IMG/VR virus record: IMGVR_UViG_3300000203_000003
Location: 32,001-96,000 of that record
Direction: 5' to 3' (one strand)
DNA length: 64,000 nucleotides
Source of the DNA: a virus
Lineage: Duplodnaviria; Caudoviricetes
Part shown: one piece after another, positions 4,189-41,299 of the stretch
Position numbering within the stretch: the first letter of the stretch is position 1
Layout: every line of letters starts with the position of its first letter
The notes under the pieces: generated by a model
The model's input: only the letters and a program-made list of their open reading frames with translations
Database searches by the model: none
What the model was told of the DNA's origin: nothing
Program-made: the position numbers and the translations under genes

Positions 4189-4830
4189 TTTACAATTAGT
4201 GAAGTGGAAACGCTTCATATTTCCTTGACCCCCTGTTTGCCCACATTGTGGGCAAACCAATATTTGCTGTGGTTTGTGCTTTTGTCCGCGATTTGAGTTT
4301 GCTATCTTGGCAACCATTTCCGGAGATTTAGATACACCTAGCATCCTCAAACTTTTCCTTTTATTGGCTTCTGCGGAGTGTTTTGATATTTTCTTACCTG
4401 TCCGTGTGAGGGAGCGTTTCACCATAGAAGCCGCCGACATTTTCCTGCCTAACTGGGCCTTCCGCATTTTCTCTTTGGTAGCGTCAGACAGGGATTTCCC
4501 GGATAGTGCCGTGCGGCGCATCTCACTAAATTCATGTTTCAATGTCTCATATACTCTAGGCGCCATTCGATGAGATCCTGTGTGACACATCAATTTAATA
4601 GCATAAATCATTTTTTCGCGTGCCGCACCTTCAAGCATTTTAGGTAATAACCAGTGGCAGATGAAGTGTTCTCTGGCAGTTAGTTTGACGAGATTATTTT
4701 GGGTGTTATCTCAGCCAATAGACTTGGGTACGATGTGATGCCGTTCTGTATAACAGGGCAATATTCGGTTTTTGGCTCGTTCTATTATTCGGTAATAAGT
4801 TGCGGTATATTTGTTGTTGATAAATATCAT
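4090..4830 (-). pseudogene. HNH homing endonuclease with NUMOD3-like repeats, in-frame TGA at 4711-4713
   Basis: Frame from ATG 4830 reads ...ERHHIVPKSIG*DNTQNNLVKLTAREHFICHWLL, matching the intact paralogue at 14094..14894. Confidence 0.85.
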
Positions 4831-4831
4831 T

Positions 4832-4897
4832 GCTGGTGTCCTCTACGACATTAGAGAGGGCGGAGATTGCAGTCTCGTGGCTCTCACTTCTATTTAT
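4832..4897 (+). ncRNA. endonuclease-associated two-hairpin element, copy 1
   Basis: GCTG-stem-TAG A GAGGGC G stem GTG GCTCTC ACTTCTATTTAT; covaries with four other copies. Confidence 0.7.
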
Positions 4898-4941
4898 TCC
4901 GTTTCTATTGCTTCTATGAATTCAGTAGTGTATAATAAGTA

Positions 4942-6423
4942 ATGACAAAAAAATGTATTATACATATAGCCGATGAAGTGAACCTCAAGATTACCGGCCT
5001 GGAACTTTCGGAGCGAAAGGCCCTGATGAAGCTATTCTCCTTCGATGTGCCGGGAGCGCGATATATGCCAAGTGTCCGATTGGGGCGCTGGGATGGCAAG
5101 GTCAGCTTCTTCTCACTGGGTGGGTCAAGCTACATCAATCTGCTTGAAGAAATCATCCCCGTAGTTGATCGCGCAGGATACGACATTGAAGTAGAAGATA
5201 CCCGAGACTATTCAACATCGTTTACATTCGACATGGTCAAAGAAGATACATATTCCTCGACACTATGGCCCAAGGGGCATCCGGTTGAAGGCACGCCGAT
5301 CATGCTACGTGACTATCAAGTTGAAATCGTGAATAACTTCCTGGCGAACCCACAATGTCTCCAGGAGATTGCCACAGGTGCTGGCAAGACTTTGATGACA
5401 GCATCGTTAAGCAAGAGCGTTGAAGCATATGGACGATCAATCGTTATCGTCCCTAACATTAGTCTGGTCACACAAACAGAAGCAGATTACATCAACATGG
5501 GACTTGACGTTGGGGTATACTTCGGCGGCAGAAAAGAGATTGGCAAAACGCACACAATCTGCACCTGGCAATCATTAAATGTTCTGCTGAAGAATACTAA
5601 AGCGGGTACCGGTGACACAACTATCGGTGAGTTTCTTGAAGGTGTTGTCTGTGTCATTGTTGACGAGGTGCACCAGGCCAAGGCAGATGCGCTGAAAACA
5701 TTGCTGACAGGCGTGATGGCGAAGATACCAATCAGATGGGGTCTGACTGGTACGATACCTAAAGCGAAGTTTGAAAGTCAAGCATTGCTTGTCAGTCTTG
5801 GTCCTGTTATTAATAAGTTGGCAGCATCAGAATTACAAGAACAAGGGGTGTTGGCAAATTGCCATGTGAACATCATTCAATTACAAGACAAGGTTGAGTA
5901 TACGAATTATCAGCAAGAGTTAAAATATCTTGTCAGTGATGACACACGAATGACGGCGATTGCCAGTGAGATTGCTAAAGTAAATCGAACCGGTAACACT
6001 CTGGTACTTGTTGACCGAATTGAAGCAGGCGAAATACTGTTGAGTAAACTCGCCGGCCATAGCACACTCAAAGATGATGTGGTGTTCGTATCAGGCGGGA
6101 CCAAGTCATCTACCCGCACAGAACAATATGAAGATGTGGCCACAGCAACAAATAAGATCATCATTGCCACATACGGTGTAGCAGCAGTTGGTATTAATAT
6201 TCCTCGGTTATTCAACGTTGTGTTGATCGAACCAGGGAAGAGTTTTGTCCGAACTATTCAAAGTATCGGACGAGGGTTGCGTATGGCCCACGACAAATCG
6301 TTTGTTCAAATAACGGATATCACTTCAAGTTGTAAGTTCTCTAAGAGGCATCTTACCCAAAGAAAAGCTTTCTACAAGGATGCGAAGTATCCCTTCGATG
6401 TAACTAAAGTCAACTACAAATAA
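4942..6423 (+). CDS. uvsW: UvsW-like SF2 DNA helicase
   Basis: LRDYQ, ATGAGKT, DEVH, LTGT, QSIGRGLR motifs. Confidence 0.9.
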   Translation: MTKKCIIHIADEVNLKITGLELSERKALMKLFSFDVPGARYMPSVRLGRWDGKVSFFSLGGSSYINLLEEIIPVVDRAGYDIEVEDTRDYSTSFTFDMVKEDTYSSTLWPKGHPVEGTPIMLRDYQVEIVNNFLANPQCLQEIATGAGKTLMTASLSKSVEAYGRSIVIVPNISLVTQTEADYINMGLDVGVYFGGRKEIGKTHTICTWQSLNVLLKNTKAGTGDTTIGEFLEGVVCVIVDEVHQAKADALKTLLTGVMAKIPIRWGLTGTIPKAKFESQALLVSLGPVINKLAASELQEQGVLANCHVNIIQLQDKVEYTNYQQELKYLVSDDTRMTAIASEIAKVNRTGNTLVLVDRIEAGEILLSKLAGHSTLKDDVVFVSGGTKSSTRTEQYEDVATATNKIIIATYGVAAVGINIPRLFNVVLIEPGKSFVRTIQSIGRGLRMAHDKSFVQITDITSSCKFSKRHLTQRKAFYKDAKYPFDVTKVNYK

Positions 6424-6424
6424 C

Positions 6425-6454
6425 TTGACAACCCCCTCACTAACCTGCTATAAT
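6425..6454 (+). promoter_or_regulatory. sigma70-type promoter
   Basis: TTGACA-N18-TATAAT, 5 nt before ATG 6460. Confidence 0.7.
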
Positions 6455-6459
6455 ACACT

Positions 6460-6963
6460 ATGTTCATACTTACCCTTGATAATAATTCCAGATACAATCT
6501 TGAAACTCTGCCTGAAGAGATAGATGATTTAAGATTCGCAATTCTGGATAACAGCAATCCTCTCAATGTAGATTATCATTACATTCCGTTGATCTTTCTG
6601 GAATCGTTTAACTCGCCTGCATTAGTTTTGAAGATTGGTAAACACACAATGAAGATGCCTGTTGATTGGCAAATCGTAATCGGCGAAAAAGAACACGGTG
6701 ATCTTGAAACATTGCCACTGACAAGTATCAATGACCGTGGATTCAATGCGTTTGAGTTCAATCCGTTATCTTCATTCTCCCCGACATTTCTGCCTATTGA
6801 AATTGTTGACATTTATAATGATGTGACATGGTATGCCCCGCGATTGAAGAACGGTCAGTTTTTGTGTGTTCCACTAGAAGACGGACCGAAACCGGCATGC
6901 GTTTACTTTGTTAAAGAAGTATCAAGGAACTGTGAAATTATTGACTACGCTCAGGTATTCTGA
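6460..6963 (+). CDS. phage hypothetical protein
   Basis: 167-aa ORF in replication cluster. Confidence 0.75.
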   Translation: MFILTLDNNSRYNLETLPEEIDDLRFAILDNSNPLNVDYHYIPLIFLESFNSPALVLKIGKHTMKMPVDWQIVIGEKEHGDLETLPLTSINDRGFNAFEFNPLSSFSPTFLPIEIVDIYNDVTWYAPRLKNGQFLCVPLEDGPKPACVYFVKEVSRNCEIIDYAQVF

Positions 6964-7842: not shown

Positions 7843-8518
7843 ACCGGTATTCTCTTGTGAGTTTTGTCGCAGAGTATTCCTTCGTGAGAAAACCATGTTC
7901 ACGCATATATGTGAGCGGAAACATCGTTGGGCTGAAAAAGATAAACAGGGTCCTCGCATCGGCTTTCAAGCATGGCTACAGTTCTATGCGAAGAATTCAA
8001 TGGGCAAGAAGAATCGCACCCAGGAAGAGTTCATCAAAAGCGCATACTACACGGCGTTCATCAAGTTCGGAACATACTGTGCCGGCGCGAATGTTGTTAA
8101 TGTAAGTAGATACACTGACTGGCTGCTGAAAGAACAGATCCGAATTGACAGTTGGAATCAAGATACCAACTATACCAAATTCCTTATAGAGTATATCCGC
8201 GTCGAGGATCCGATGGATGCGCTGGCCCGCAGCATTGAAACGACAATCAAAATGGCTGAAACGGAACGGATTTTGGCGCATGATATTCTGCGTTATGGGA
8301 ACCCGAATAAGATATGCTATCAAATCACGCTTGGAAAGATAAGTCCCTGGATGCTTTACCAGAGCGAAAGTGGCGTAGAGTTTTTATCAAAACTAAATGC
8401 TGACCAAGTACGAATCATTAATGACTACATAAATCCCGAGCAATGGGCAATCAAGTTTAAACGGGATCCGGAATCAGCAACGCAAGTAAAAGACTTATTG
8501 GTCGCTGCTGGCTATTAA
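7802..8518 (+). CDS. hypothetical protein with N-terminal zinc finger
   Basis: FSCEFC...F...H.C motif. Confidence 0.7.
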   Translation: MKKSTNTKPTEETKPVFSCEFCRRVFLREKTMFTHICERKHRWAEKDKQGPRIGFQAWLQFYAKNSMGKKNRTQEEFIKSAYYTAFIKFGTYCAGANVVNVSRYTDWLLKEQIRIDSWNQDTNYTKFLIEYIRVEDPMDALARSIETTIKMAETERILAHDILRYGNPNKICYQITLGKISPWMLYQSESGVEFLSKLNADQVRIINDYINPEQWAIKFKRDPESATQVKDLLVAAGY

Positions 8519-9087
8519 TTTAGCTGCTTTGGTTGCTTTACATTTAGCAATACTTTCAGCAGTATTAGTATTAAGTGTTCCGTTCTTGCGCCTGCTCTCT
8601 TTTAATTTAGCTTTGCTCTCATCAGTCCAAGTATTGAGATTACCGTTTTTGCGTCTGGTAGCGATTCGCTTGGCGATATTCTCCGGAGTAGGTTTTAATG
8701 TTCCGTTTGCTGCCATTGTTGCTAATCTTTTTTTGGTGCTTTCAGGCTTAGTTAAGTATGTATTGTTAGACCTCCGCGCCGCGACGACCTTGGCAATTAT
8801 TTCGGGGGTAGTACCGCCGTTACCGGATTCCGGTTTTAAGTTGGCCCATTCATCACTCTCGACAACGTTCCATTCTTCACTGTAATGGATTCCCATTCTT
8901 TAAGTTCATCTTTGGATTGGCACTCGCGGATTATTTCGGTTGTTATATCTTTGCCGTGTTTATTTAAATGGCGCTCCCAATGTAAACCTGAACCGAGGTA
9001 TTTGTGAGGATCTTTGCGTTTTGTCTGACAGAGGTATTTTAGACCGGTAATATTATGGGTCTTTACCATGAGGTAATAAATAGTCAT
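8495..9087 (-). pseudogene. GIY-YIG (Seg-like) endonuclease split by a 1-nt frameshift near 8892-8894
   Basis: IYYLMVK..KYLCQT..YLGSG in one frame continues as (W)GIHYSEEWNVVES..WANL in the -1 frame; basic repeats follow. Confidence 0.8.
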
Positions 9088-9161
9088 GCTGGTGCTCCTT
9101 ATTTAGTTATAGCATTAGAGAGGGTGGGAAGTCCAATTCCGCGATCCTCACTTCTATTTAT
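9088..9161 (+). ncRNA. endonuclease-associated two-hairpin element, copy 2
   Basis: CTGGTGCT/AGCATTAG stem; GAGGGT G GGAA..TTCC GCG ATCCTC ACT. Confidence 0.7.
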
Positions 9162-14093: not shown

Positions 14094-14894
14094 CTATTGT
14101 CGATATTTACATTTATCGCCGTGCCACTTTTTAAGATTGGCGACATCCATTGATCTTTGACAATGGGGACAGGTGTCTAATATTTTTCTTTCCCCGAGAC
14201 CGAGAATCCATCCAATATTTAAATACGGACCAGTATCTTCCGGATCAAGTTGTTTTCTCTCGCTCGGATTGTTTGGATTATGTATCCATTGTTTCCCGGT
14301 GTTCGCTTCTTTGATTTTTTGTTTGTCTGCGTCAGTCCGACTTATTCCGATGTTCCATGGTTTTAGCCCGTTGACTACTAGTTTTTTCCTCGTTTCGGAC
14401 ATCTTGTGACACTCGGCCTCAGTTCTAGGGATACCTTTGTTCCATGCAGTTTTACCTCTCTTAGAAGCCGCAATGCGTTCTTTCCATTCTGGAGTGAATA
14501 TTTCAGTCGTTCTTTCAGGATGTTTTTTACCAAAGTTAGGATGGGCCTCTCCTCGTCGGCCCCGAAGAATCGCAGCCCGTTGTTCTTTGACTTGTTCGTA
14601 TATCCTAGATGATGGCTTGTATCTTTTGCCCAACTTCTTTGTATTAGACATGAACCACAGCGCATGAACCATTTTATATCTATTGTTACCTGTTGTAAAC
14701 TTTGGTAGAAGCAGATGACAGATGAAATGTTCCCGTGCAGTAAGTTTTACTATATTTGATGCGGCGTCCGTTCCGCCTAGGCTTCTAGGCAGAATATGGT
14801 GTTTCTCGGTATAGGCGTTCGGGTCATTTACCCTTGACAAGGCTACATTGATTATGTTATAATAACATTTATTATATTTGTTTAGTAAGTTCAT
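14094..14894 (-). CDS. HNH homing endonuclease with NUMOD3-like repeats
   Basis: EKHHILPRSLGG..NIVKLTAREHFICHLLL; AWNKG repeats; CPHC tail. Confidence 0.9.
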   Translation of the reverse strand: MNLLNKYNKCYYNIINVALSRVNDPNAYTEKHHILPRSLGGTDAASNIVKLTAREHFICHLLLPKFTTGNNRYKMVHALWFMSNTKKLGKRYKPSSRIYEQVKEQRAAILRGRRGEAHPNFGKKHPERTTEIFTPEWKERIAASKRGKTAWNKGIPRTEAECHKMSETRKKLVVNGLKPWNIGISRTDADKQKIKEANTGKQWIHNPNNPSERKQLDPEDTGPYLNIGWILGLGERKILDTCPHCQRSMDVANLKKWHGDKCKYRQ

Positions 14895-17251: not shown

Positions 17252-17320
17252 ATAAATAGAAGTGTAGTCCACGAGTCTCTTACCTCTCCGACTACTCTAC
17301 TGCTAAAAAGGAGCACCAGC
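17252..17320 (-). ncRNA. endonuclease-associated two-hairpin element, copy 3 (inverted)
   Basis: reverse complement GCTGGTGCT..AGCAGTAG A GTAGTC G GAG..CTC GTG GACTAC ACTTCTATTTAT. Confidence 0.7.
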
Positions 17321-18000
17321 ATGAGTATTTATTCAAAAACCAATCCTCCCGAAGATTCCTATTTATACGCCTATTTACGAGAAGATGGGACGCCTTATTA
17401 TATCGGCAAAGGGACTTACAGACGAGCCTGGGAAAAGGGTAGAGGAGAAATTCAACTTCCTAGCGATAGAAACAGGATAGTAATATTAGAAGCCGGGTTG
17501 AACGAAGTAGGTGCGTTGGCGTTAGAGCGCCGATATATACGTTGGTACGGACGAATGGATAAGAATACAGGAATCCTTCGGAATATGACGGATGGCGGTG
17601 ACGGGGCAGCGGCGCAGTTCGTTCCGACGATTGTAAATTGTTACATAAAGTTATCACAACTAACTACCATGCTGCCTTATCCGAAACGCAGATAAAAACA
17701 AGGGCTAATAATTGTTCAGCCGGCCAACGAAATCGTTTTAAATTAACGCCCGAGTCAGTATTAACTAAAGAACGAAAGAGCAAATCGCATCAAGGTAAAT
17801 ATCTGATAATTAGTCCGGCCGGTGAATCTCATTCCGCGGCGTCGGGATTAAAAGAATTTGCCCTAATACATGGTGATCTATTGCAGGTAACATATTGGCA
17901 ATTATTCAACGCATATAGAAAATCTTATCATACAATCCCAACCAAAAGAATACGAAGTGATGCAAATAATTGGAAAGTAACCCGCATTGATAACGACTGA
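17321..18000 (+). pseudogene. GIY-YIG endonuclease split by a 1-nt frameshift at GGGG 17603-17606
   Basis: [18 protein letters not shown]...[10 protein letters not shown], then continues in the -1 frame into ORF 17638..18000. Confidence 0.75.
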
Positions 18001-18044: not shown

Positions 18045-19031
18045 ATGCTTAACATAGCCTCTATTATTCCCGGAAAGAAAAAGAATACCAGTACTGGGTG
18101 GTTAACTTTTAATTCAGTATGTTGTCAGCACCGCGGTCACAAAGCTGACAGGCGAATGCGCGGTGGTATTAAAGTAGAAGGAAATACCCAAATATACCAT
18201 TGTTTCAATTGTGGATACAGTTGCGCCTTTACTATGGGCCGGAGCATCAATCAAAAGACAACTAATCTTCTCAACTGGTGCGGGATAGACACTGAACAAA
18301 TTCAGCGATGGTCATTTGAGTCGCTTCAACGCAAAGACTTGTTAGACTTTACACATACGAAGAAGCATAAATCAAAGATAACATTCAAAGAGTTCAAGGT
18401 GCCACCAGAGGCAACTCTTCTGGATCAAACAAATCCCGAACACCAGCACTATGTTGACTATCTTCTAAAGAGACACATCAATCCAGCAGAGTATCCATTC
18501 ATGATTACTCCGGGCATGCCGGGACGATACAGAAATCGGATCGTTATCCCGTATACATACAATAACAAGATCGTCGGACAGACAAGTAGATTTTTAGATA
18601 CGCTGACACCAAAGTATCTCAATGAACAGCAACCGGGATATGTATTTGGTATCGACTTTCAGAAGCCTGAGTGGCAAGTATGTATTCTGGTCGAAGGGAT
18701 ATTTGATGCGCTGAGTATCAATGGCTGTGCCCTCACACATAACACGATCAATGAGGATCAGGCCAGGTTACTTGCACAGTTGAACAGACGCATCATTGTA
18801 GTACCAGACAGAGACTTGACTGGTATGGATATATGCGACCGAGCATTAGAGTTAGGATACAGCGTCAGCATACCTGATTGGGCACCGTACATAAAAGATG
18901 TGAATGACGCAGTAGTAGAATATGGGAAGTTGCCGACGCTGTTAAGCATATTAGAAGCGGCAACTTCATCAAAGATAAGAGTAGAAATTCAAAGGAACAA
19001 AATTGTCAAAAGATTACAAAAAGGAAGATAA
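18045..19031 (+). CDS. DNA primase (T4 gp61-like)
   Basis: Zn-binding C..H..CFNC; TOPRIM VEGIFDA, PDRD, KDVND. Confidence 0.9.
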   Translation: MLNIASIIPGKKKNTSTGWLTFNSVCCQHRGHKADRRMRGGIKVEGNTQIYHCFNCGYSCAFTMGRSINQKTTNLLNWCGIDTEQIQRWSFESLQRKDLLDFTHTKKHKSKITFKEFKVPPEATLLDQTNPEHQHYVDYLLKRHINPAEYPFMITPGMPGRYRNRIVIPYTYNNKIVGQTSRFLDTLTPKYLNEQQPGYVFGIDFQKPEWQVCILVEGIFDALSINGCALTHNTINEDQARLLAQLNRRIIVVPDRDLTGMDICDRALELGYSVSIPDWAPYIKDVNDAVVEYGKLPTLLSILEAATSSKIRVEIQRNKIVKRLQKGR

Positions 19032-20451
19032 GCAGGTAGAATACACCCCTGAGGTGCAGACATTATTTTTAAGGATGATGCTTACCAACGCGGTGTTGTA
19101 TACTCGCGTGGCAAACATTATGAATGCCGCAAACTTTGATAAGACGCTGCGCCCTGTTGCTGAGATGTTCAAGGAGCATGGTGAGAAATACAATGTGTTA
19201 CCAGATGCCTCACAGATCAAAGCATTGACGGGTCAAGACATTGAACCAATCCCCGAACTGAATGAAGGGCACTATCAATGGTTTCTGGATGAGTTTGAGA
19301 AATTCACAAAGAAGCAAGAACTTGAACGCGCAATCCTGAAGAGTGCTGATTTGTTAGAGAAGGGCGGGGACTTCTCCCCAGTCGAAAAGCTGATCAAAGA
19401 TGCAGTTCAAATCAGTCTGCAAAAAGATATGGGCACTGATTACTTTGCTGATCCGCGTGGACGATTGCTGGCACTGAAAACTAACAACGGACAGAATAGC
19501 ACAGGGTGGCCTACTATGGACAGGGCCCTATACGGTGGATTCAACCGCGGCGAACTTCAAATCTTTGCGGGTGGATCTGGTTCCGGCAAGTCTTTGTTTC
19601 TTCAAAATCTTGCTGTCAACTGGTCACAAGCAGGATTCAACGGAGCATACATCACACTTGAATTGGCTGAAGGTCTCTGTTCAATGCGTATCGATTCGAT
19701 GATGACCGATACATCGTCACGAAACATCTTCAAAGACATTGACAACGTTGAGATGAAGGTCAAGATGATGGCGAAGAAGTCTGGTAAGATGCGTATCAAG
19801 TATATGCCCGCACAGTCGAATGTGAATGATATTCGGGCATACTGTAAAGAGTTGATGATTCAAACTGGAGTCAAAGTTGACTATTTGTGCGTAGATTATC
19901 TTGATCTGATCATGCCAGTCTCTGTTAAAGTATCACCAGAAAATCTGTTCATCAAGGACAAATATGTCGCAGAAGAATTGCGTAATCTGGCAAAAGAATT
20001 GAATGTTCTGTTTGTGACAGCATCACAGCTTAATCGTTCGGCAGTTGAAGAAATTGAATTTGATCACAGTCATATCTCAGGTGGTATCAGTAAGATTAAT
20101 ACTGCGGATAACGTTATGGGTATTTTTACTAGTCGTGCTATGCGTGAACGTGGACAGTATCAACTTCAACTGATGAAAACTCGTTCCAGTTCGGGTGTTG
20201 GTCAGAAGATTGAGTTACAATTCAATGTGGAAACTCTGCGAATCACTGATGATGGCGGCGGAGAAGATGAATCAAGCTACAGACCACAGACAGCGCCGAC
20301 TCCGTCCCCGTTAGAAACAATAACAGGGGTGAAGCCTACTCCGTTTACTGACATATCACAACTTGCCGAAGTTGAACCCTGGACTAAGCACGTTGTCTCT
20401 GACGTTCAAGGCTCTAAGTTAAAGTCTCTGTTAAATTCCCTGAAGAAATGA
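19003..20451 (+). CDS. DnaB-like replicative helicase (T4 gp41-like)
   Basis: GGSGSGKS, ITLEL, VDYLD, ASQLNR. Confidence 0.9.
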   Translation: MSKDYKKEDKQVEYTPEVQTLFLRMMLTNAVLYTRVANIMNAANFDKTLRPVAEMFKEHGEKYNVLPDASQIKALTGQDIEPIPELNEGHYQWFLDEFEKFTKKQELERAILKSADLLEKGGDFSPVEKLIKDAVQISLQKDMGTDYFADPRGRLLALKTNNGQNSTGWPTMDRALYGGFNRGELQIFAGGSGSGKSLFLQNLAVNWSQAGFNGAYITLELAEGLCSMRIDSMMTDTSSRNIFKDIDNVEMKVKMMAKKSGKMRIKYMPAQSNVNDIRAYCKELMIQTGVKVDYLCVDYLDLIMPVSVKVSPENLFIKDKYVAEELRNLAKELNVLFVTASQLNRSAVEEIEFDHSHISGGISKINTADNVMGIFTSRAMRERGQYQLQLMKTRSSSGVGQKIELQFNVETLRITDDGGGEDESSYRPQTAPTPSPLETITGVKPTPFTDISQLAEVEPWTKHVVSDVQGSKLKSLLNSLKK

Positions 20452-28424: not shown

Positions 28425-28474
28425 ACCAAACTTTCTCAAATAGATAAATAGTATGATAAAGCGAAGATCATACT

Positions 28475-29170
28475 ATGATAATTTACAAAACAGTCAATCT
28501 CATAACCGGTAAATGGTATATCGGGAAGGACGCCGCCAATCTCAATTCTTACTTGGGATCCGGAAAGGCATTAAAAAATGCTATCCGGAAATATGGTGTG
28601 CAAAATTTCAAAAAAGAAATTATTGAAGAATGTGCCGACTTGACACACATGTCGGCCCGAGAAGCGCATTGGATATCGATATCCAATGCGGTAAATGATC
28701 CCATGAGTTACAATCTAGTGCCTGGTGGTGAAGGCGGGGACCGTAGTAAATTCATAGATTATGCTGCGGTAGATCGCACTAACTATAAAATGACCGGGAC
28801 CAAAGCATGGTTTGAGGCCCTCTCAGAGGTCCAGCGGTCAGCATGGCATGCTAAACAAGGTCTGGCCCGGTGTAAGGGCTGGTATGTAAGTAAAGTAGAT
28901 AACACTGATGAAATTTATGTGCTTAATATAGCGAAATGGTGTAGAGAGAATAATATAGATATCGGTATGCCTACTAAAATGAATGATCCTGCTGATAGTT
29001 GTTATCAACGAGCAGCAAAGGGTTGGAGAATTAGGCGTGCTGATATGCCGATCTTACCAGTATATGTTAAATATATCAGGCAAGGTTATCCTAATGTGGC
29101 CTGTAGGGGCAAGTCATGGAAGATGATCGATGGCAAACGCATTTGGATAAATAAAGAGGAGAAGGCATAA
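28475..29170 (+). CDS. GIY-YIG (Seg-like) homing endonuclease
   Basis: IIYKTVN..WYIGK..YLGSG..YN. Confidence 0.85.
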   Translation: MIIYKTVNLITGKWYIGKDAANLNSYLGSGKALKNAIRKYGVQNFKKEIIEECADLTHMSAREAHWISISNAVNDPMSYNLVPGGEGGDRSKFIDYAAVDRTNYKMTGTKAWFEALSEVQRSAWHAKQGLARCKGWYVSKVDNTDEIYVLNIAKWCRENNIDIGMPTKMNDPADSCYQRAAKGWRIRRADMPILPVYVKYIRQGYPNVACRGKSWKMIDGKRIWINKEEKA

Positions 29171-31956: not shown

Positions 31957-31980
31957 CCCATCATTTTTCGCCCAAAGCGA

Positions 31981-32069
31981 TAAATAAACTCATACACTCT
32001 CATTCTGAGAGTTTATGCTGTAACCCACAGCGTAGGACTAGAACTCCACACAACCTAAAGGAAAAACAA
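31981..32069 (+). promoter_or_regulatory. late promoter plus structured 5' leader
   Basis: TAAATA, then ACTCTC/GAGAGT and TATGCTGT/ACAGCGTA hairpins. Confidence 0.55.
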
Positions 32070-33251
32070 ATGGGACGCCCTCTTAAAATCGCCAAATCAC
32101 AATTCGTTGGCACAATCACCGGAACAACAACCGGTACAAACATCGTTACTTTCATCCCTGCTATAACTGCTACTGTTAACTTCACTGTAGGCATGCCTGT
32201 CGTTGTATCAACTACCGTCAGTAACATCATCGCCGGAACAACATATTGGGTACTAACTATGCCAAGCACATCGTCTATGACGTTAAGCTCGACCCCGTTA
32301 GATGCTAATATCAATAGGACACCGCTTGCACTTGGCACAGTCGGCCCGGTCACTGTTGGTTTCACTGTCAATTTAGTTGACTATGGTTTCAACAATCCAA
32401 ATGGTGCAGCTAACACATACAGCGTTGTCGGTGGCAACACCGGAAGCTATGGCAAGCAAGTTCTTGCTGATGTTGCTATCGGTCGCGTGGGCGCCGGAAC
32501 AGTAACATTGAACGGTACGGCTGGTAAAGAAATGTGGGGCGCTGGTACAGACTTTGCTAACACGTTGTCAGTTGGATCGTCAGTTGAACTGGCAGACGGC
32601 ACTATAGCAGGTCATGTCGCAGTGATTCCTGGCTACATCGTAGTCGCAGTTACAGATACAGAAGCAGTCGGTAGTATTGTTGTTGCAGTTAGCACAGCAG
32701 CAATGAACGCTCTTCAACCAATCGTGTTCAATGCTGATATCGGTAATTTAACAGCCGGCACAGTGTATTGGGTTCGTGATATTCTGAGTGTGACAGATTT
32801 TACTGTCAGTATGCAGCGCAACGGTTCTTTAGTAACGCTTGCTGATGATTCAGCAGTTGTGACTGGTCATCAAGATTATGTCGTGATGGGCGCTATCACT
32901 CCGCAACATTATGCACTGTCTGCTTGGACATATGCTGATAACGAATCTGGTTTCATCGTCAGACAAAAAGGTCGTAGCAAGTTCCTTGTAACTGGTCTGA
33001 CTTCAGGTCTAACTGGTGTTTGCTACACAGCAGATTTAGCAGCAGCAGCACTTGTGCCCGGCACAATGCGAGTCTCTGCAACAACAGCGGCACCGGCAAC
33101 TGTATTATTAGAAAGATTAGCTGATCATACAGCCAGAGGATTTGGTAACACTGATACTGCTACAGCATACTACGCATCGTTTAACGCAGCGATTGCAGCA
33201 AATGCAACGCCAAGTCAACCGTACGGAGTGATTACTGTTAATAACTCTTAA
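32070..33251 (+). CDS. putative virion structural protein
   Basis: MGRPLK start, Thr/Val/Gly-rich, IVRQKGRSKFLV. Confidence 0.65.
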   Translation: MGRPLKIAKSQFVGTITGTTTGTNIVTFIPAITATVNFTVGMPVVVSTTVSNIIAGTTYWVLTMPSTSSMTLSSTPLDANINRTPLALGTVGPVTVGFTVNLVDYGFNNPNGAANTYSVVGGNTGSYGKQVLADVAIGRVGAGTVTLNGTAGKEMWGAGTDFANTLSVGSSVELADGTIAGHVAVIPGYIVVAVTDTEAVGSIVVAVSTAAMNALQPIVFNADIGNLTAGTVYWVRDILSVTDFTVSMQRNGSLVTLADDSAVVTGHQDYVVMGAITPQHYALSAWTYADNESGFIVRQKGRSKFLVTGLTSGLTGVCYTADLAAAALVPGTMRVSATTAAPATVLLERLADHTARGFGNTDTATAYYASFNAAIAANATPSQPYGVITVNNS

Positions 33252-34163: not shown

Positions 34164-34763
34164 TTAGACTATGCCATGATGTGCCCTACATTTATCAAAG
34201 TGCCATCTACCCATGGCACTTGCGCCCCCTGATGTGCCGCAATGAGGACATTCTACAATCGGTTTAGGTATACCGGATAACGCCTCGCTGATTTTAGGAT
34301 TCTTTCGACCAGTAAGGGTGGCGCTCACCCAGGGCTGTTTCTTTCCGCGCTGTCTTTCACTCTTTGCGGTATTCTGGTCAGCAGTGTGTTTTCCACCAAC
34401 TAATTTTTGTCTAATCTTTTCTTTAACACATTCAGTTACTTTTTTGCCCAAGTTAGCTTTTCTAATTTTATCAGTATGTGATTTAGATTGTTTATAACCA
34501 CTAGTGCCTTCTCCACCATCTGTTAGGTTACGAAGTACCCCGGTCCCTAAATCTTTTCTACCGTACCACTTAATTAGTTGTCGTTCTAGTGCGAAAGCAC
34601 CTATCTCGGTTAAGTTCCGTTCTATTATAATAATTCTAGATTTTTCAGGTACTTTAATACGGTGGTTAATAGAGTCATATGCTCTACTGCCTTTTCCCTT
34701 GCCTATATAATACACGGTGTTGTTGGTTTTACGCAAATATGCATAAACATAATAAATAGTCAT
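34164..34763 (-). CDS. GIY-YIG homing endonuclease with NUMOD3-like repeats
   Basis: YVYAYLR..YYIGKG..NLTDGGEG; start placed at ATG 34763 after AAGGA RBS. Confidence 0.88.
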   Translation of the reverse strand: MTIYYVYAYLRKTNNTVYYIGKGKGSRAYDSINHRIKVPEKSRIIIIERNLTEIGAFALERQLIKWYGRKDLGTGVLRNLTDGGEGTSGYKQSKSHTDKIRKANLGKKVTECVKEKIRQKLVGGKHTADQNTAKSERQRGKKQPWVSATLTGRKNPKISEALSGIPKPIVECPHCGTSGGASAMGRWHFDKCRAHHGIV

Positions 34764-34829
34764 GCTGTGATTCCTTTCAATCATAGAGTAGTTGGGGAGT
34801 GGACGCCCGCGAACTACACTTTTATTTAT
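34764..34829 (+). ncRNA. endonuclease-associated two-hairpin element, copy 4
   Basis: CTGTGATT/AATCATAG; GTAGTT G GGG..CCC GCG AACTAC ACT. Confidence 0.7.
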
Positions 34830-36199
34830 CAAATAACAATAGAATAGTCCCCGGCCGCATAAAAGCCTTCCCAAGACTTCATCCAAGTATCATCAGTGAA
34901 GCGATACTGAACCGCAGTGGTGAGATTAGTGACATACTGAACATCAGCAAGCAATGAACTGTCAAAACTGACGAACCATTTGCCCAGTGCGCTGCTGTAT
35001 TCAATAATATCATTAGCTTGAGCGATTAGATCACCCCAGCCGATTGTTGTGTCGCCCACATGACCGATACTCTCAACGATCAGATAGCGTCTGCCATTGA
35101 CTGGTGCAGGTAGTCCGGCGTTAGGACCAGAGACTAGCGGATTGATTACACTGTCAACAGGAGCAAGTGTATTCTGCGGCAGAGTATCAGGGTCGATACT
35201 GTAAATCAACAGACGATCATCATTTGGATCAGGAACAATCGTGCCAACAATCTCTGTTGTCATATAGGGATTCTGTAACCAGATTTGCGAGATGCCTGGA
35301 CGAATCGTGCCGTATACATTCAGCACACTGGCCCAATAGACTGAGGTGTCTGGGTTAGGTGGCAAGTTCAGATCATCGTTCTCAGGATAGAAGTCCCGAT
35401 TAGCAGGAAGTATTTGCAGAGCATTGCTGATCAACAATAACTTATAACCGTAAGGCGTAATCTTTTGTCTGGTCCCTAACAACAGATCATCATCTTGAAT
35501 GTCAGTAAGCGCATGACCTTTGAAGATAGACGCAATGATTTTCTCAATGACGCCGTACTTTTTAAGTTTCGCTGCGGTGCTCAACCATATAGGCATGTAG
35601 AACTTCCAAGTCAGCACATCGATAGGATTGCCTGAACCTTGTGGAATAGTTCGTGATGACCAGTTCAGTGACTCTTGATAGACAACGCTCAATGAAGTCC
35701 AGTCAATGAAGTTATCAGTTGATTGTATTTCAAGCGCAGGGTTAAACAGGGTACCCAGCTGCTCAACTAATTCAAGCTTTTGATTGTAGTTTGTTGTCCA
35801 GAAGTCTACTGTTATTTTAAGTGTATACGGCACTGGCATTAGTCGTTCAACTGTAAATGCTTGCCCCTGTGTAGTTTCATAAGTCTGAGTGTCACTATTG
35901 TATGCACGTTGTCTGATGCTGATTCTGTCAGTATATGTAGGATCCTGAGTTCGTTTCTGATCATACTCAAGCCCGCTGATGTAATATGAAATCATCGGAG
36001 CACTTGGCAGGTTGCTTGCGGTGTTGTTAGAGATGATGTTTGCTGCTTGTCTGCTGCTGTCACCATACATCACCGGTACTCTGACCATGATATCATTGCC
36101 TGCAGGGTCTTTGCCCCTGGTGACTTGCCAGTTAGAAAATATCTTCGCAAACTGTAGTAGAAAACGGCGAATCTGATTATCGTAGAAGAATGCGGCCAA
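34829..36199 (-). CDS. tail sheath stabilizer/terminator (T4 gp15-like)
   Basis: FFYDNQIRR..F..VPVMYG..PVPY..EQLGTLFNP. Confidence 0.8.
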   Translation of the reverse strand: MAAFFYDNQIRRFLLQFAKIFSNWQVTRGKDPAGNDIMVRVPVMYGDSSRQAANIISNNTASNLPSAPMISYYISGLEYDQKRTQDPTYTDRISIRQRAYNSDTQTYETTQGQAFTVERLMPVPYTLKITVDFWTTNYNQKLELVEQLGTLFNPALEIQSTDNFIDWTSLSVVYQESLNWSSRTIPQGSGNPIDVLTWKFYMPIWLSTAAKLKKYGVIEKIIASIFKGHALTDIQDDDLLLGTRQKITPYGYKLLLISNALQILPANRDFYPENDDLNLPPNPDTSVYWASVLNVYGTIRPGISQIWLQNPYMTTEIVGTIVPDPNDDRLLIYSIDPDTLPQNTLAPVDSVINPLVSGPNAGLPAPVNGRRYLIVESIGHVGDTTIGWGDLIAQANDIIEYSSALGKWFVSFDSSLLADVQYVTNLTTAVQYRFTDDTWMKSWEGFYAAGDYSIVI

Positions 36200-37860: not shown

Positions 37861-38523
37861 TTATGTATTTGTTAGTAAACACCATCCTCCGACGCGAAGT
37901 TGTTTATGGTTGACGACACTGCTCATACTTGTAATGTTGAGGTTATATTTTTTAGTGAGTTCGGATTGGGTGCAACTTTCCTTTTCACCATTTTGGTGAA
38001 CGAAAGAATAGATAGTTAGATCGAAATTGGGATTGTTCCCGCCAAACCTGGTAATATTCCATTTTTGTTTTTCTGGAGTTAGTCTCCATCCGCGATGTGT
38101 CTTTGCTTTATTAGTAACCAATCCCGTAACACCAGAAATATTCAATGAATGTTTTTTGACCATGTCATATCTCGTACAATGCTCAACTCTTCCATCAGAG
38201 TGAAAAAATGTATATAAGGTTGTATCCCAAGGACACCCTGCTTTACCTTCTCCACCATCAGTTCTATTGTGCAGAATCCCAGTGAGATTATCTTTTCTAC
38301 CATACCATCTTATCAATCTTCGCTCCAGAGCATATGCCCATAACTCAGTTAGTCCGGTTGCGATGACTATTATCCTGTTTCTATCGGCTGGCAGCGGAAT
38401 GCTGTGCTTTTCGGTTGCTCGTTTGCCAATGCCCTTTCCGATATAGTATGGCGTGCCGGATTCTCGCAAATAGGCGTATACATAAAATCCTTCTTTGGTG
38501 TGTTGTCGGCCAAATATGTGCAT
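37861..38523 (-). CDS. GIY-YIG homing endonuclease
   Basis: [27 protein letters not shown]; two C-terminal repeated domains. Confidence 0.85.
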
Positions 38524-38592
38524 AGAGTATTTATCACTTGACAATAAACCCGTAATCTGTTACACTGAAAGTGTAGAAAGAAGGAGTAGGAA

Positions 38593-38840: not shown

Positions 38841-39194
38841 ATGGCTTACACTTTTGACGAAAACATCGTTTCTGATCTTCACAAAGACGCTTTCGGCTTC
38901 CGCCCGAGTCAGTCTTGGTGGTACGGTTGGACTCATGCTTCCGACGAAGGCAAGCAACATGAGTGGGACTATATGCTCAAGATTCTGGATAACACCATGG
39001 CAGAAGATGCCCGCCGGGAACAAGACGCTATCGTGGCGTTCGAGGTGCTCGTCACCAAGACGATCAACTCAGGTGCCAAGACCCGCGAAGTTGCCCTGCG
39101 CTGGATCATGGAAGCAAGCACCTGTGACGGTGATTGGGAATATCTCTGCTACACTCACGGTCTCCCCTACTCTTACTTTCGCAAGGTGGCATAA
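38841..39194 (+). CDS. early hypothetical protein
   Basis: SDLHKDAFGFRP motif, GGAG RBS. Confidence 0.75.
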   Translation: MAYTFDENIVSDLHKDAFGFRPSQSWWYGWTHASDEGKQHEWDYMLKILDNTMAEDARREQDAIVAFEVLVTKTINSGAKTREVALRWIMEASTCDGDWEYLCYTHGLPYSYFRKVA

Positions 39195-39325
39195 TGGCGT
39201 GGATTGCTGTAATCATCCTAGTTCTTACAGGTAATCCAGGACTAGCATTTATCGTTGCAATGCTGTTGATCTTGTTCGGTTGACACTTCATCTAAATAGT
39301 GCTACAATATCACAAAGGAAAACTA

Positions 39326-40531
39326 ATGGCAACTCGTAAACACAAAAAGACAGAAGACCACAGTCAAGTCAAGGCGCTGAACCCGCGTGATGTTGATCAA
39401 AAATATCTCGGCGACGAACCTCTGTTCGCCGAACAACCTGCAGCCGAGAATCGCAACTCAGCGATTGCCCGCGGTCTCGCATGGTATCATCGTTTCTACA
39501 CTCGCAAAGATGCCCGCGATATGCTGGCAACTTATCTTGACATTCATGAACGGACAGCAGATGCCAAAGTCATGCGTAAAGTCGATGAGGGCGAGTTCCG
39601 ACTGCCCACATTCGCATGGCTGTCTCGCATGGTCCTACGTGGTCTTGAACTGACAGAGCATGAAATGCTGTCATTGGAAAACGAAATCTCCAGGCTGCTG
39701 TTGACTATCAACAAGCCCGAAGTTAAGGTGACAAGCAAATTCACAACTGCGGCAAAGACTCCTGAACAGGCTGCAACTGCTAAGACAAACATCCAGGAGA
39801 CAATGCGTGAAAAGGCGCGTGAGGCTGCAGGTGAATTGGAGGGACTGTTTGATGACTACCTCACAGCAGGACAACCCACAAAACATTCGCTGCGTCCAAT
39901 GGATGAAGTGGCTAAGAAGAATGTCATGGTTCAACACATATCCATGCTCCGTGAAGTCTGGAACAAGAAACTTGCTGAAATGAATGAACTGCTCGAAGGC
40001 AAGGACGCTCAATTGGTTCAAGCGTACAGTCATTACAGCAAGCAACAAGTCAAGAATACGATCAAATTCATTGAGTTAATCATCAATGACCTCAATAGTT
40101 ATGTCAGTCTCAAAAAGACAACGAAAGCACCGCGCGCTCGTAAGGCGAGCCCGGTGGAAAAAACGGTCTCAAAAATGAAATATATGAAGGCGTTCAATGA
40201 CCCGGCAACAAAAGTAGATTTGATCAGTATCAGTCCTATTAAGGTACATAACGCCGAAGAAGTGTATCTGTATGATACCCAACTACGGAAGTTAACATAC
40301 CTAGTAGCCGATGAATATAGCAAAACTATGACTGTCAAAGGCACAACTATTTTGGGCTTCGACACAGCAAAAAGCCAGACAAAGACACTGCGTAAACCGG
40401 CAGAACAACTAAAGGAATTTCTGAAGTTGGGCAAACCGGCCGGACGAAAGTTTTTCGAGGCTATTCGGGCAGTAGCAACTATTCCCAAAGGTCGAACAAG
40501 CGACCGGACTATTATTTTGAAGGCGTCGTAA
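39326..40531 (+). CDS. phage hypothetical protein
   Basis: TTGACA-N17-TACAAT promoter at 39280; VKGTTILGFD..KTLRKP C-terminus. Confidence 0.75.
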   Translation: MATRKHKKTEDHSQVKALNPRDVDQKYLGDEPLFAEQPAAENRNSAIARGLAWYHRFYTRKDARDMLATYLDIHERTADAKVMRKVDEGEFRLPTFAWLSRMVLRGLELTEHEMLSLENEISRLLLTINKPEVKVTSKFTTAAKTPEQAATAKTNIQETMREKAREAAGELEGLFDDYLTAGQPTKHSLRPMDEVAKKNVMVQHISMLREVWNKKLAEMNELLEGKDAQLVQAYSHYSKQQVKNTIKFIELIINDLNSYVSLKKTTKAPRARKASPVEKTVSKMKYMKAFNDPATKVDLISISPIKVHNAEEVYLYDTQLRKLTYLVADEYSKTMTVKGTTILGFDTAKSQTKTLRKPAEQLKEFLKLGKPAGRKFFEAIRAVATIPKGRTSDRTIILKAS

Positions 40532-41234
40532 TCAACTGCCAACCCTTCACTGTCCTTACGGCACCGCGCACCATCTTATTGACGTTGCGCGATTCCAATT
40601 TATGACTGGTATAAAAATCGTGACGAGTTGTAAAAACTTCCTCTCCTGTATCTTTATGCCTAAAACCATATATTGTGTGATCATAACTGTGGTGCCTTCG
40701 CCCAGCAAAAGGGGATGTGCCATCCGGTTTGCGTGAAAAAGGATTGACATATCCCGGTATTAATGTTTTGGTTTTACTAACACTAGAACCATCTTCCCTC
40801 TTAAGGAGATTGTGTGTTTTATTCAGTACACGATCAATATTATGATTACTACCGTCCGGTCTAGTTTGCCATGGATGTGTTCCTTTCGTTACACGATCAG
40901 TTTGTACATTTGTTCCATCCGGTCTTGTCTGCCATGGATGTGTACCATTAATCACTTGTTGTAAATTTCTAGCCCGGTTGAGTTCAGATAATATTTCTGC
41001 AGGCATTGTCATTTTGCGCCCTATAAGCAGACATGCTCCGAAGTCTGATTGCCTATAATGAATATCATAATGCTCCTGGATACTTAGGGCTGCTAAATTA
41101 GATGGGCCATTGTTAGTACGATCACCATCTAAATGATGAATGTCATATGTGCGTCCGGTTACATCTTTTGGGATCGGACCGATATGGTTCTCGTATATTT
41201 TACGATACTTAGTTGTTCCACAATAAATACACAT
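40512..41234 (-). CDS. HNH homing endonuclease
   Basis: YDIHHLDGDRTNNGPSNLAALSIQEHYDIH; GTHPWQ repeats. Confidence 0.88.
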   Translation of the reverse strand: MCIYCGTTKYRKIYENHIGPIPKDVTGRTYDIHHLDGDRTNNGPSNLAALSIQEHYDIHYRQSDFGACLLIGRKMTMPAEILSELNRARNLQQVINGTHPWQTRPDGTNVQTDRVTKGTHPWQTRPDGSNHNIDRVLNKTHNLLKREDGSSVSKTKTLIPGYVNPFSRKPDGTSPFAGRRHHSYDHTIYGFRHKDTGEEVFTTRHDFYTSHKLESRNVNKMVRGAVRTVKGWQLITTPSK

Positions 41235-41299
41235 GCTGATGCCCTTTCACGGCGTTAGAGAGGGTGGGCCTGCCAGCCGCGACTCTCACTTTTATTTAT
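41235..41299 (+). ncRNA. endonuclease-associated two-hairpin element, copy 5
   Basis: CTGATGCC/GGCGTTAG; GAGGGT G GGC..GCC GCG ACTCTC ACT. Confidence 0.7.

Follow-up and report, generated by a model that had tools for sequence, protein, structure and literature searches.

Conserved hairpins together with TATAAATA were described upstream of metagenomic homing endonuclease genes (HEGs) by Dassa et al. 2009, who read them on the sense strand (PMC2677866); these hairpins lie in the 5'UTRs of free-standing GIY-YIG and Vsr-like HEGs at the GOS 'fractured gene' loci. The element described here resembles those loci in coming from metagenomic T4-like phages, in placing a hairpin and a late-promoter box directly 5' of HEGs of several families, Vsr-like ones among them, and in that the hairpin may outlast loss of the HEG, for which one locus found here (L106:1130-1221), with a solo hairpin 2 and box and no HEG alongside, may be compared. 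Unlike our element, theirs was described as a translational hairpin, and the text of the paper reports neither a covariance model nor a strand test, an antisense box or an architecture of two hairpins. Compared by description, the hairpin of Dassa et al. 2009 probably represents our element or one that is sister to it, and since hairpins with a late-promoter box 5' of HEGs of several families were thus on record in 2009, on the sense strand, the sequence-only reading of this DNA overstated the novelty of its find.

A late promoter immediately 5' of the gene is also known for I-TevI, I-TevII, I-TevIII, segB and Aeh1 mobE (PMC2988022), and there too a structure in the leader RNA serves to limit nuclease synthesis. 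Our element differs in that the hairpin with the Shine-Dalgarno (SD) sequence in its loop folds only weakly when read sense, in that both hairpins come downstream of the promoter, and in that selection on the fold acts on the antisense strand. What is previously unnamed in Rfam, as judged from sequence, is a covarying two-hairpin antisense cassette with an outward-facing late box.

Results

The element is a widespread cassette of about 80 nt located at the beginning of HEGs that are carried by uncultured jumbo phages of a T4-like clade. Five copies are present in the window, by which we mean the whole stretch of 64,000 nucleotides that was analysed (Table 1), exactly where the sequence-only reading had placed five copies of ~70 nt, one of them (17252-17320) inverted. 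Each copy so delimited starts with the G located 5 nt past an ATAAATA box and ends with the final base of the opposite box, and the extremities of the element are short inverted repeats. The 13-mer CACTTYTATTTAT has five exact occurrences in the window (0 mismatches), and the reversed pattern gave 0 matches on both strands of the contig. Covariance model R1 found exactly 12 copies in the 142-kb contig (E <= 8e-12) and more than 110 across IMG/VR, nearly all at nuclease genes; the covariation set comprises 117 distinct copies. A search of Rfam for an existing family gave no match even at E <= 1, and no copy was found in cultured phages. The invariance earlier claimed for the linker A and the ACT tail holds in the five window copies and is partly relaxed in copies found without the sequence pattern. 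In copy 4 the sense box overlaps the TGA stop of an upstream gp15-like gene (TGATAAATA).

Table 1. Coordinates of the element copies and of homing endonuclease genes in the window (strand is the folded strand for the element and the coding strand for genes)
Feature	Extent	Strand	Antisense box	Predicted start G	Hairpin 1	Linker A	Hairpin 2	Tail	Sense-box complement	Remarks
Element copy 1	4820-4897	+	4820-4826	4832	4833-4854	4855	4856-4885	4886-4890	4891-4897	Folded strand antisense to nuclease
Element copy 2	9076-9161	+	9076-9082	9088	9089-9118	9119	9120-9149	9150-9154	9155-9161	
Element copy 3	17252-17332	-	17326-17332	17320	17297-17319	17296	17264-17295	17259-17263	17252-17258	
Element copy 4	34752-34829	+	34752-34758	34764	34765-34786	34787	34788-34817	34818-34822	34823-34829	
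Element copy 5	41223-41299	+	41223-41229	41235	41236-41258	41259	41260-41287	41288-41292	41293-41299	
HNH homing endonuclease gene, copy 1	4090-4830	-								ATG at 4830; in-frame TGA within HNH motif (SIG*DN)
Seg-like GIY-YIG gene, copy 2	8495-9087	-								MTIYYLMVKTHNITGLKYL...; start codon at 9087; frameshift after ~83 codons
GIY-YIG gene, copy 3	17321-18000	+								Start codon at 17321; frameshift after ~124 codons
GIY-YIG homing endonuclease gene, copy 4	34164-34763	-								Start codon at 34763; intact, 199 aa
HNH homing endonuclease gene, copy 5	40512-41234	-								Start codon at 41234; intact, 240 aa; MCIYCGTTKYRKIYENH...HHLDGDRTNN
Homing-endonuclease-like gene, no element	14094-14894	-								
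Homing-endonuclease-like gene, no element	28475-29170	+								
Homing-endonuclease-like gene, no element	37861-38544	-								
Homing-endonuclease-like gene, no element	56467-57030	+								

Each window copy abuts the start codon of a nuclease gene, two of them HNH and three GIY-YIG, as had been noted before. In three of the five the element is intact and the nuclease gene is broken, and the HNH gene of copy 1 is likely a pseudogene. The TGA inside its HNH motif and the frameshifts behind copies 2 and 3 had escaped the sequence-only reading. When neighbours were tabulated for the wider set, the element proved to be linked to nuclease genes: in nearly all copies the reading frame that opens with the ATG encodes a nuclease (phrog_314 in 62/106, phrog_655 in 30, NUMOD3 in 28, many HNH phrogs, and Vsr/DUF7487 types). 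The idea of a portable module common to unrelated nuclease families thus stands and now takes in three of them, GIY-YIG, HNH and Vsr-like PD-(D/E)XK. At least four homing-endonuclease-like genes of the window lack the element and carry the same late-promoter box. No common 3' motif was found at the nuclease genes, the element marking their 5' end only.

Pairing across the 117 distinct copies reaches 96.9% in hairpin 1 and 98.1% in hairpin 2, compared with 33-53% in slid-alignment controls, and at 14 pairs both partners have changed. Covariation scores 0.464 in the real alignment and 0.166 in shuffled ones, and 0 of 500 shuffles reach the observed value, so that the covariation proposed from five copies holds in the larger set. 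The outer stem of hairpin 2 occurs in 36 different versions, every one of them pairing, and the hairpin loops are not conserved. The search pattern left the bulged Gs of the G-Y-G motif unconstrained, yet they are invariant in all 117 copies, between stems that covary freely. Such invariant bulged Gs would be unnecessary for a plain antisense RNA.

The strand that carries the conserved two-hairpin fold is the antisense one relative to the nuclease, as it had originally been read, and base-pair asymmetry and minimum free energy (MFE) agree on this. G·U cells on the antisense strand number 277, or 160 once a single invariant pair is set aside, against 19 A·C cells (binomial p = 6e-29), and the outer stem alone has 43 against 0. 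The core has an MFE of -17.6 kcal/mol on the antisense and -11.9 kcal/mol on the sense strand, the antisense being more stable in 108/115 copies; for hairpin 1, which is only 76.8% paired when read on the sense strand, the values are -5.5 and -2.3 kcal/mol. The five window copies range from -19 to -26 kcal/mol on the antisense strand and from -14.6 to -18.5 kcal/mol on the sense strand, with the antisense better in 5/5.

ATAAATA is the predicted late-promoter consensus of this phage; (G)ATAAATA stands upstream of the tail sheath, the tail tube and other + strand genes, with 49 occurrences on the + strand against about 19 expected. The convergent boxes of this type that had been pointed out in the element are both real and conserved at the nucleotide level, facing each other ~65 bp apart. 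The antisense box, which the search pattern did not impose, reads ATAAATA in 96/117 copies and differs by a single A-to-G change in another 18. In 109/114 copies the G of GCTG follows it at a distance of 5 nt, and the box points outward from within nuclease codons 2-4 (xxT ATT TAT). Synonymous sites are fixed there, the third base of codon 2 being T in 93/93 (background 33%), Ile being ATT in 92/93 (background 42%) and Tyr being TAT in 85/93 (background 69%). The copy-1 HNH gene starts MIFI, by which the TATTTAT box falls in a different codon frame, and in this and other MIF... copies the spacing from box to GCTG is constant while the ATG and the reading frame shift. In the contig the antisense box is preceded by A in 11/12 copies; late genes prefer G, a difference that counts against the explanation favoured below.

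Discussion

The explanation that we favour, though tentatively, is that convergent late promoters produce a nuclease mRNA and a structured cis-antisense RNA of ~65 nt lying over the 5'UTR and the SD. With similar caution, we suggest that the element may be a self-contained, portable expression cassette for free-standing HEGs. Driven by the upstream box, the nuclease mRNA would begin with the G at the hairpin-2 foot, and its 5'UTR would comprise the entire element, ahead of the SD and the ATG. Driven by the box in codons 2-4, the antisense RNA would begin with the G at the hairpin-1 foot. Hairpin 1 would display the anti-SD CUCCU in its loop; the bulged hairpin 2 would come next and then the U-rich ACUUUUAUUUAU, which is complementary to the sense promoter. 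Hairpin 2 and this tail probably form an intrinsic terminator that yields the ~65-nt RNA. A simple terminator scan does not call them, the stem being bulged and the U-run beginning 2 nt after it. Fully complementary to the nuclease 5'UTR and SD, the antisense RNA would keep nuclease synthesis low through blocked ribosome binding, duplex cleavage or both, and head-on promoter interference may add to the repression. We infer that both boxes fire, that transcription ends after hairpin 2 and that the effect is repressive. Of the three functions offered by the sequence-only reading, the antisense silencer fits best, and nothing in our analysis speaks specifically for an ssDNA mobility end or a protein scaffold. 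Were the element there solely to hold an active nuclease in check, one would not expect to find it intact next to broken nuclease genes, except where these decayed recently.

The HEG runs opposite to its neighbour in 69/106 contexts, the divergent neighbour lying ~55 nt past the element, and HEGs so placed need a promoter of their own, for which the sense box is the only conserved candidate. This arrangement would also suit a composite promoter-terminator (insulator) cassette, similar to the PeSLs, that serves the host phage or the integration of the cassette rather than nuclease repression: hairpin 2 and the U-rich tail, read antisense, would terminate transcription running backwards through the nuclease gene, and the outward box would give the neighbouring phage gene late transcription with a 5'-stabilising hairpin. 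The antisense box is canonical in 61/69 copies with a divergent neighbour (88%) and in 21/32 co-oriented ones (66%; Fisher p = 0.012, a comparison confounded by relatedness among copies), which hints at a role toward the neighbouring gene. The intact elements next to decayed nuclease genes, the survival of hairpin 2 and box at the locus without a HEG, the promoters for downstream genes that are embedded in T4 HEGs (PMC2988022) and the composite terminator/promoter nature of PeSLs (PMC4122927) point the same way. However, the 32/106 copies without a divergent neighbour retain the full structure and mostly the box as well, hairpin 1, with its anti-SD loop and strong covariation, would have no role, and in copies 1, 2 and 5 the neighbour owns a sigma-70-type promoter between the element and its ATG. 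The restriction of the element to the nuclease 5' end and the negative terminator scan also argue against an insulator, which we regard as rather unlikely. Classical T4-type control on the sense strand, as in I-TevI, segB and Aeh1 mobE, would place the late promoter in the 5' arm of an inhibitory structure and reduce the antisense 'box' to its 3' arm. In early or read-through transcripts AUAAAUA would pair with UAUUUAU after the AUG and enclose the translation start, and late transcripts, lacking the 5' arm, would be translated. HEG 5'UTR hairpins are read in this way in the literature (PMC2988022, PMC2677866), RNAfold closes the structure with an AU helix of 7-8 bp in 4/5 window copies read sense and in 5/5 read antisense, accessibility of the AUG+12 region is somewhat lower in read-through transcripts (0.43) than in late ones (0.58), and upstream genes that run in the same direction, separated by 0-6 nt, would yield read-through in ~30% of contexts. 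Yet SD accessibility is unchanged, at 0.53 in late and 0.51 in read-through transcripts, and the fold is therefore not a T4-type RBS trap, which bears out the earlier judgement that sequestration of the I-TevI type fits poorly. The covarying hairpins are selected on the other strand, by their G·U excess and the poor sense pairing of hairpin 1; the ATAAATA/TATTTAT closing helix has almost no covariation, with pair 6-117 unpaired in 82/117 copies, the A-to-G variants of the antisense box become A·C mismatches when read sense, and a multiloop closed by seven A-U pairs is of marginal thermodynamic stability. As most HEGs face away from their neighbours, sense read-through would be unexpected there, and we consider control of this kind improbable.

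The strand asymmetry would be equally expected if the fold acted as single-stranded DNA, in which G·T wobble pairs explain the same bias, and the short inverted repeats at the element ends and its travelling with mobile genes of three nuclease superfamilies would be consistent with a signal for recombination, priming or mobility carried by the nuclease cassette. Both inverted repeats are, however, the exact late-promoter consensus, each 5 nt from a hairpin-foot G, and so are explained by transcription, not by DNA chemistry; a second end on the 3' side of the genes is absent, no HUH or other ssDNA transposase is associated, and the element contains an SD and a start codon, all of which make a DNA signal very unlikely indeed. 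A protein-bound antisense RNA (a cofactor, decoy or scaffold), recognised by its invariant nucleotides and acting in trans on several nucleases, would account for the unvarying G-Y-G Gs amid freely covarying stems and for the presence of 12 copies within one genome. We find it very unlikely, as no conserved partner protein is evident, the nucleases are unrelated folds with DNA-binding domains of their own (NUMOD3, others), the loops are unconserved and bulges are also usual in plain antisense RNAs.

Comparison with known systems

The PeSLs (PMC2839356, PMC4122927) are likewise small repeated cassettes of a promoter and a stem-loop that mark mobile or variable genes of T4-like phages, but they have early promoters of the sigma-70 type, flank ORFs on both sides and show no tie to nucleases, whereas our element has late boxes on both strands, holds an SD and an ATG, and stands at the 5' end only. 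A precedent for the antisense RNA that we favour is CfrI, which runs opposite a HEG in the T4-like cyanophage S-PM2 and is co-expressed with it (Millard et al. 2010, cited in PMC2984593); unlike our element, CfrI is ~225 nt long and links psbA to F-CphI, and it is not described as a portable, multi-copy, covarying module. The HEARO/omega-RNA of IscB is also a structured RNA beside HNH nuclease genes, but our element does not match it in Rfam, is about 4-fold smaller and, on the opposite strand, extends over the start codon; the nucleases here come with DNA-binding modules of their own. In IS10 the transposase is under cis-antisense control by RNA-OUT, directed against RNA-IN (Rfam RF00240), other transposases are controlled in a similar way, and the logic of the proposed antisense RNA would be the same. 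As in IS10, an outward promoter just inside the 5' end of a mobile nuclease gene would be convergent with the gene's promoter, and a bulged stem-loop antisense RNA of ~65-70 nt, here a predicted one, would lie over the RBS. The two differ in that they share no sequence or model similarity, in that our element has two hairpins against one, and in its use of phage late promoters. If the antisense reading is true, a small RNA keeps a selfish DNA-cutting gene in check.

Copies of the element and their distribution

The element, a cassette of about 80 nt at the start of homing-endonuclease genes (HEGs), is real, widespread, strongly covarying and absent from Rfam. In the window the five copies proposed by the sequence-only reading are found where it had placed them, each adjoining a nuclease ATG, and identification of the ORFs confirmed two HNH and three GIY-YIG nucleases behind them. 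Three of these five nucleases are broken, one by a stop codon in the HNH motif and two by frameshifts, while their 5' elements are intact. A regular-expression search, and later a covariance model, found exactly 12 copies in the contig, every one at a nuclease start.

Nuclease genes preceded by the element in the window
Gene	ATG	Extent	Strand	Condition
HNH gene, copy 1	4830	4090-4830	minus	in-frame TGA in HNH motif (4714-4716)
GIY-YIG gene	9087	8495-9087	minus	frameshifted
GIY-YIG gene	17321	17321-18000	plus	frameshifted
GIY-YIG gene	34763		minus	
HNH gene	41234		minus	

Seven further nuclease genes had been said to lack the element; the absence was confirmed for at least four homing-endonuclease-like genes of the window, in which a plain ATAAATA box takes its place (just 4 nt ahead of the ATG in two of them). 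One element-free HEG (28475-29170, + strand) is preceded by a late box and then directly by a distinct hairpin of 7 perfectly matched bp (GTATGAT...ATCATAC; window 28444-28480, + strand) that ends at its ATG and may be an independent answer to the same regulatory need. At window 34823-34831 (- strand), the sense late-promoter box of the nuclease that lies downstream shares bases with the TGA stop of the gp15-like gene (TGATAAATA).

CheckV estimates the 141,978-bp contig, whose bases 32001-96000 make up the window, to be 41% complete, and on this basis we regard the source as a jumbo phage. Its T4-type core genes encode a UvsW helicase, a gp15 tail-sheath stabiliser, a gp41-like DnaB helicase, a tail sheath and a tail tube, and by DnaB helicase its closest cultured relatives are Pseudomonas phage PA5oct and Agrobacterium phage Atu_ph07 (~51% amino-acid identity). 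Homologues of the gp41-like helicase gene (window 19003-20451) occur in 13 element-bearing loci among those fetched from IMG/VR (L009-L122), so that element nucleases often adjoin replication genes, like the published fractured gp41 loci.

A scan of IMG/VR with a gapped pattern gave more than 114 stretches among the matches listed. From the matches listed, 117 distinct copies were aligned (alignment A2), and a covariance model, R1, was built for further searching; on the fetched loci R1 added seven copies that lie outside the search pattern. The total number of copies exceeds 110 among the IMG/VR matches listed. A complete 349-kb relative has four copies. Non-nuclease proteins are shared with this contig by 75 of 114 loci at a median identity of 57%, and the carriers, whose loci range from 33 to 51% G+C, therefore form a broad, related clade. 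Two copies compared by blastn with 50,697 GenBank phage records gave no match up to E = 1, and megablast with 8 kb of the window likewise gave none. In PA5oct and Atu_ph07, R1 produced a single 23.8-bit match, which lies within a structural CDS of PA5oct and was judged spurious. The expectation that no Rfam family would match held both in the window (cmscan at gathering thresholds) and in eight 3-kb loci (E <= 1). A solo remnant at L106:1130-1221 (- strand) of one fetched locus keeps hairpin 2, the tail and the sense box and is without hairpin 1, the antisense box and a nuclease ORF, which indicates that the element can outlast its gene.

Fold and functional strand

On the strand antisense to the nuclease, the element consists of ATAAATA, 5 nt, G, hairpin 1, A, hairpin 2, ACUUU and UAUUUAU. 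Hairpin 1 has 8 bp and carries a CUCCU anti-Shine-Dalgarno (anti-SD) sequence in its loop, and in hairpin 2 a 6-bp outer stem is followed by an isolated pair, set between two bulged Gs, and then by 4-5 bp of inner stem. Across the 117 copies pairing reaches 96.9% in hairpin 1 and 98.1% in hairpin 2, as compared with 33-53% in slid-partner controls. The covariation first seen among five copies is upheld across the 117: both sides change at 14 pairs, and the score of 0.464 (0.166 when shuffled) was reached by 0 of 500 shuffles. The outer stem of hairpin 2 occurs in 36 different versions, every one of which pairs, and the isolated pair also covaries, being G-C in 78 copies, G·U in 27 and A-U in 11. 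The search pattern itself required CATGCTG, TAGAG, CACT and TATTTA, and their invariance is thus partly by construction; in the copies found outside the pattern the supposedly invariant ACT tail is relaxed and TAAATA is kept.

Three other interpretations of these sequences were rejected. A helix closing the element, in place of two promoter boxes, is unsupported, the AU helix being mostly invariant with one-sided changes only. A short antisense ORF (ATG CTG ...) was ruled out as a conserved peptide because the stems covary. A hammerhead or other small self-cleaving ribozyme was also discarded, since the CUGAUG string lies within a covarying stem and no Rfam ribozyme model matches.

That the structure belongs to the strand antisense to the nuclease, as originally read, is borne out by wobble pairs. 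The antisense strand shows 277 G·U cells (160 when the one invariant pair is set aside) versus 19 A·C cells, the latter being G·U if read on the sense strand (binomial p = 6e-29). In hairpin 2, the outer stem by itself contributes 43 G·U and 0 A·C. The core is more stable as antisense in 108 of 115 copies (-17.6 versus -11.9 kcal/mol for sense), and the corresponding folding energies of hairpin 1 are -5.5 and -2.3 kcal/mol. Together, the G·U excess and the greater antisense stability indicate that selection has acted on the fold in the strand complementary to the nuclease mRNA, which is the key result here.

Putative promoter boxes

The T4 late promoter is TATAAATA (PMC2988022). On the + strand of the contig (G)ATAAATA is found upstream of the tail sheath, the tail tube and many other genes, and occurs 49 times where about 19 copies are expected; for these two reasons we take it to be a late promoter. 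The antisense box in codons 2-4 of the nuclease, which was outside the search pattern, reads ATAAATA in 96 of 117 copies and has a single A-to-G change in 18 others, and it stands 5 nt from the G of GCTG in 109 of 114. The synonymous sites beneath it are fixed: codon 2 has T as its third base in 93/93 genes, Ile is ATT in 92/93 and Tyr is TAT in 85/93, against 33%, 42% and 69%, respectively, in the rest of the same ORFs. In MIF... proteins, whose ATG is displaced by one base, the distance from the box to GCTG is kept and the distance to the ATG is not. The putative sense box, which matches exactly those ahead of the tail genes, is likewise located 5 nt upstream of a G, at the foot of hairpin 2, so that the start of each predicted transcript would coincide with a hairpin. 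In either predicted RNA, the complement of the opposite promoter supplies the U-rich stretch that follows the hairpins.

Many late-promoter boxes, at window 20460, 42602, 51716, 52523 and 56459 (+) and 38534 (-), stand only 4 nt ahead of an ATG (ATAAATActtgATG), leaving no space for a Shine-Dalgarno sequence (SD), which points to late mRNAs that may be leaderless. In front of the UvsW gene, TGTATAAT stands 5 nt from the ATG (window 4931-4944), a placement that suggests an early mRNA of leaderless type. A freshwater-2 RNA (Rfam RF02980) at window 31996-32072 (+) scores 57.2 bits versus a gathering score of 49.9 and begins about 10 nt past a box of the late-promoter type (31980-31986). The final three bases of this RNA coincide with the ATG (32070) of a 393-aa ORF (32070-33251) for which no PHROG match was obtained at E <= 1e-5. 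With this arrangement, the orphan freshwater-2 motif would form part of the 5' leader of a late gene in a jumbo phage that is T4-like.

Nuclease genes behind the element

Most of the 106 ORFs of at least 95 aa that follow the ATG match PHROG homing-endonuclease or HNH families (phrog_314 in 62, phrog_655 in 30, phrog_12324 in 17, and many HNH phrogs). Their Pfam domains include NUMOD3 in 28 and HNH_3 in 13, as well as SegE/GIY-YIG, and a third nuclease fold is represented by DUF7487 with MTES_1575, DUF559 or Vsr-like PD-(D/E)XK domains. The proposal of a module portable across unrelated nucleases is therefore sustained by the PHROG and Pfam matches to GIY-YIG, HNH and Vsr-like proteins. Element-bearing HNH genes have an extra MTIYS... 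N-terminus ahead of the usual start, so the cassette carries the first four codons along with it.

Proposed mechanism and alternatives

The best-supported reading of the sequence is that convergent late promoters would produce the nuclease mRNA and a structured cis-antisense RNA of about 65 nt. We infer that both boxes fire, that the antisense RNA terminates and that repression is the outcome. The antisense RNA would span the 5'UTR and SD of the nuclease mRNA, with a control logic like that of IS10 RNA-OUT and RNA-IN, and promoter interference is a possible extra effect. The G·U asymmetry weakens sense hairpin 1, an effect that would allow read-through of the nuclease mRNA, and hairpin 2 with its U-run could halt the antisense RNA. 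Hairpin 2 has a mean energy of -10.5 kcal/mol and is followed by ACUUUUAUUUAU; a simple terminator scan makes no call on the element.

A real rival is a composite terminator and outward-promoter role like that of the promoter-early stem-loop, PeSL (PMC4122927). A divergent neighbour is present at 69 of 106 copies, and the antisense box is more often canonical at such neighbours (88% vs 66%, p = 0.012, the copies being interrelated, which confounds the test); elements also outlast the decay of adjoining nucleases. No common 3' motif was found among the ends of nine intact nuclease genes. The T4 paradigm of a ribosome-binding-site trap relieved by a late promoter (PMC2988022) fits poorly, as had been anticipated for I-TevI-type sequestration: SD accessibility is alike in late and read-through transcripts (0.53 and 0.51), the predicted start is upstream of both hairpins, and covariation is essentially absent from the supposed AU closing helix. 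Under the antisense reading, the RNA might further be a dedicated structured family, recognised by way of the invariant bulged Gs and the nucleotides at its junctions, and acting in trans on nuclease copies of the same genome or on nuclease mRNAs of a co-infecting phage, which we consider quite unlikely. If true, a trans-acting RNA would be a common 'governor' or antidote accompanying selfish nucleases of three unrelated folds.

Significance

Homing endonucleases are the commonest selfish genes in large phages. To our knowledge their restraint is understood in only a few T4 cases, all of them sense-strand hairpins, and we know of no previous description of IS10-like antisense control for homing endonucleases as a class. 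The mirror-image late promoters and strand-asymmetric fold predict such control. As an RNA family conserved in many copies and devoted to HEGs, the element would be the first of its kind; it is portable across nucleases of the GIY-YIG, HNH and Vsr-like types and widespread among uncultured jumbo phages. It also offers a clear case from nature in which G·U asymmetry tells the functional strand of a palindromic element. The element could be used as a sequence tag to find free-standing homing endonucleases in metagenomes, and as a compact, predicted bidirectional late-promoter/terminator unit for T4-type expression.

Comparison with known systems

Like the T4-type HEGs I-TevI, segB and mobE, the element places a candidate late-promoter box directly upstream of the endonuclease ORF. 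It differs from them in having no stable SD-sequestering sense hairpin, sense hairpin 1 (-2.3 kcal/mol) being 76.8% paired with the SD in its loop, and in a predicted start upstream of both covarying hairpins, so that late transcripts would lose only a marginal 7-bp AU helix. Control of the IS10 RNA-OUT type involves an outward promoter in the first codons and a short, stable, structured antisense transcript over the ribosome-binding site. In the element, the candidate for the former is a promoter-consensus box at fixed spacing with conserved synonymous sites, and the latter is a predicted transcript whose structure is selected on the antisense strand. In cmscan of the window (gathering thresholds) and of eight 3-kb loci (E <= 1), no homology to RF00240 or another Rfam antisense family was found. 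PeSLs combine a sigma-70-type early promoter with a terminator stem-loop on both sides of variable ORFs, whereas the boxes of the element are late-type, a common 3' motif is missing and the early promoters are located beyond the conserved element.

For free-standing HEGs of the GIY-YIG and Vsr-like types at GOS fractured-gene loci, Dassa et al. (2009) described hairpins in 15 of 16 5'UTRs, with TATAAATA in ten of these and two conserved motifs that pair in the stem, and interpreted the hairpins as sense-strand translational hairpins (PMC2677866). Likened by description and not by sequence, the GOS hairpins are probably the same element or a sister. In cyanophage S-PM2 an antisense RNA, CfrI, lies opposite a HEG (PMC2984593). 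New here are the strand of the element, its convergent-promoter architecture and its reading as an antisense RNA.
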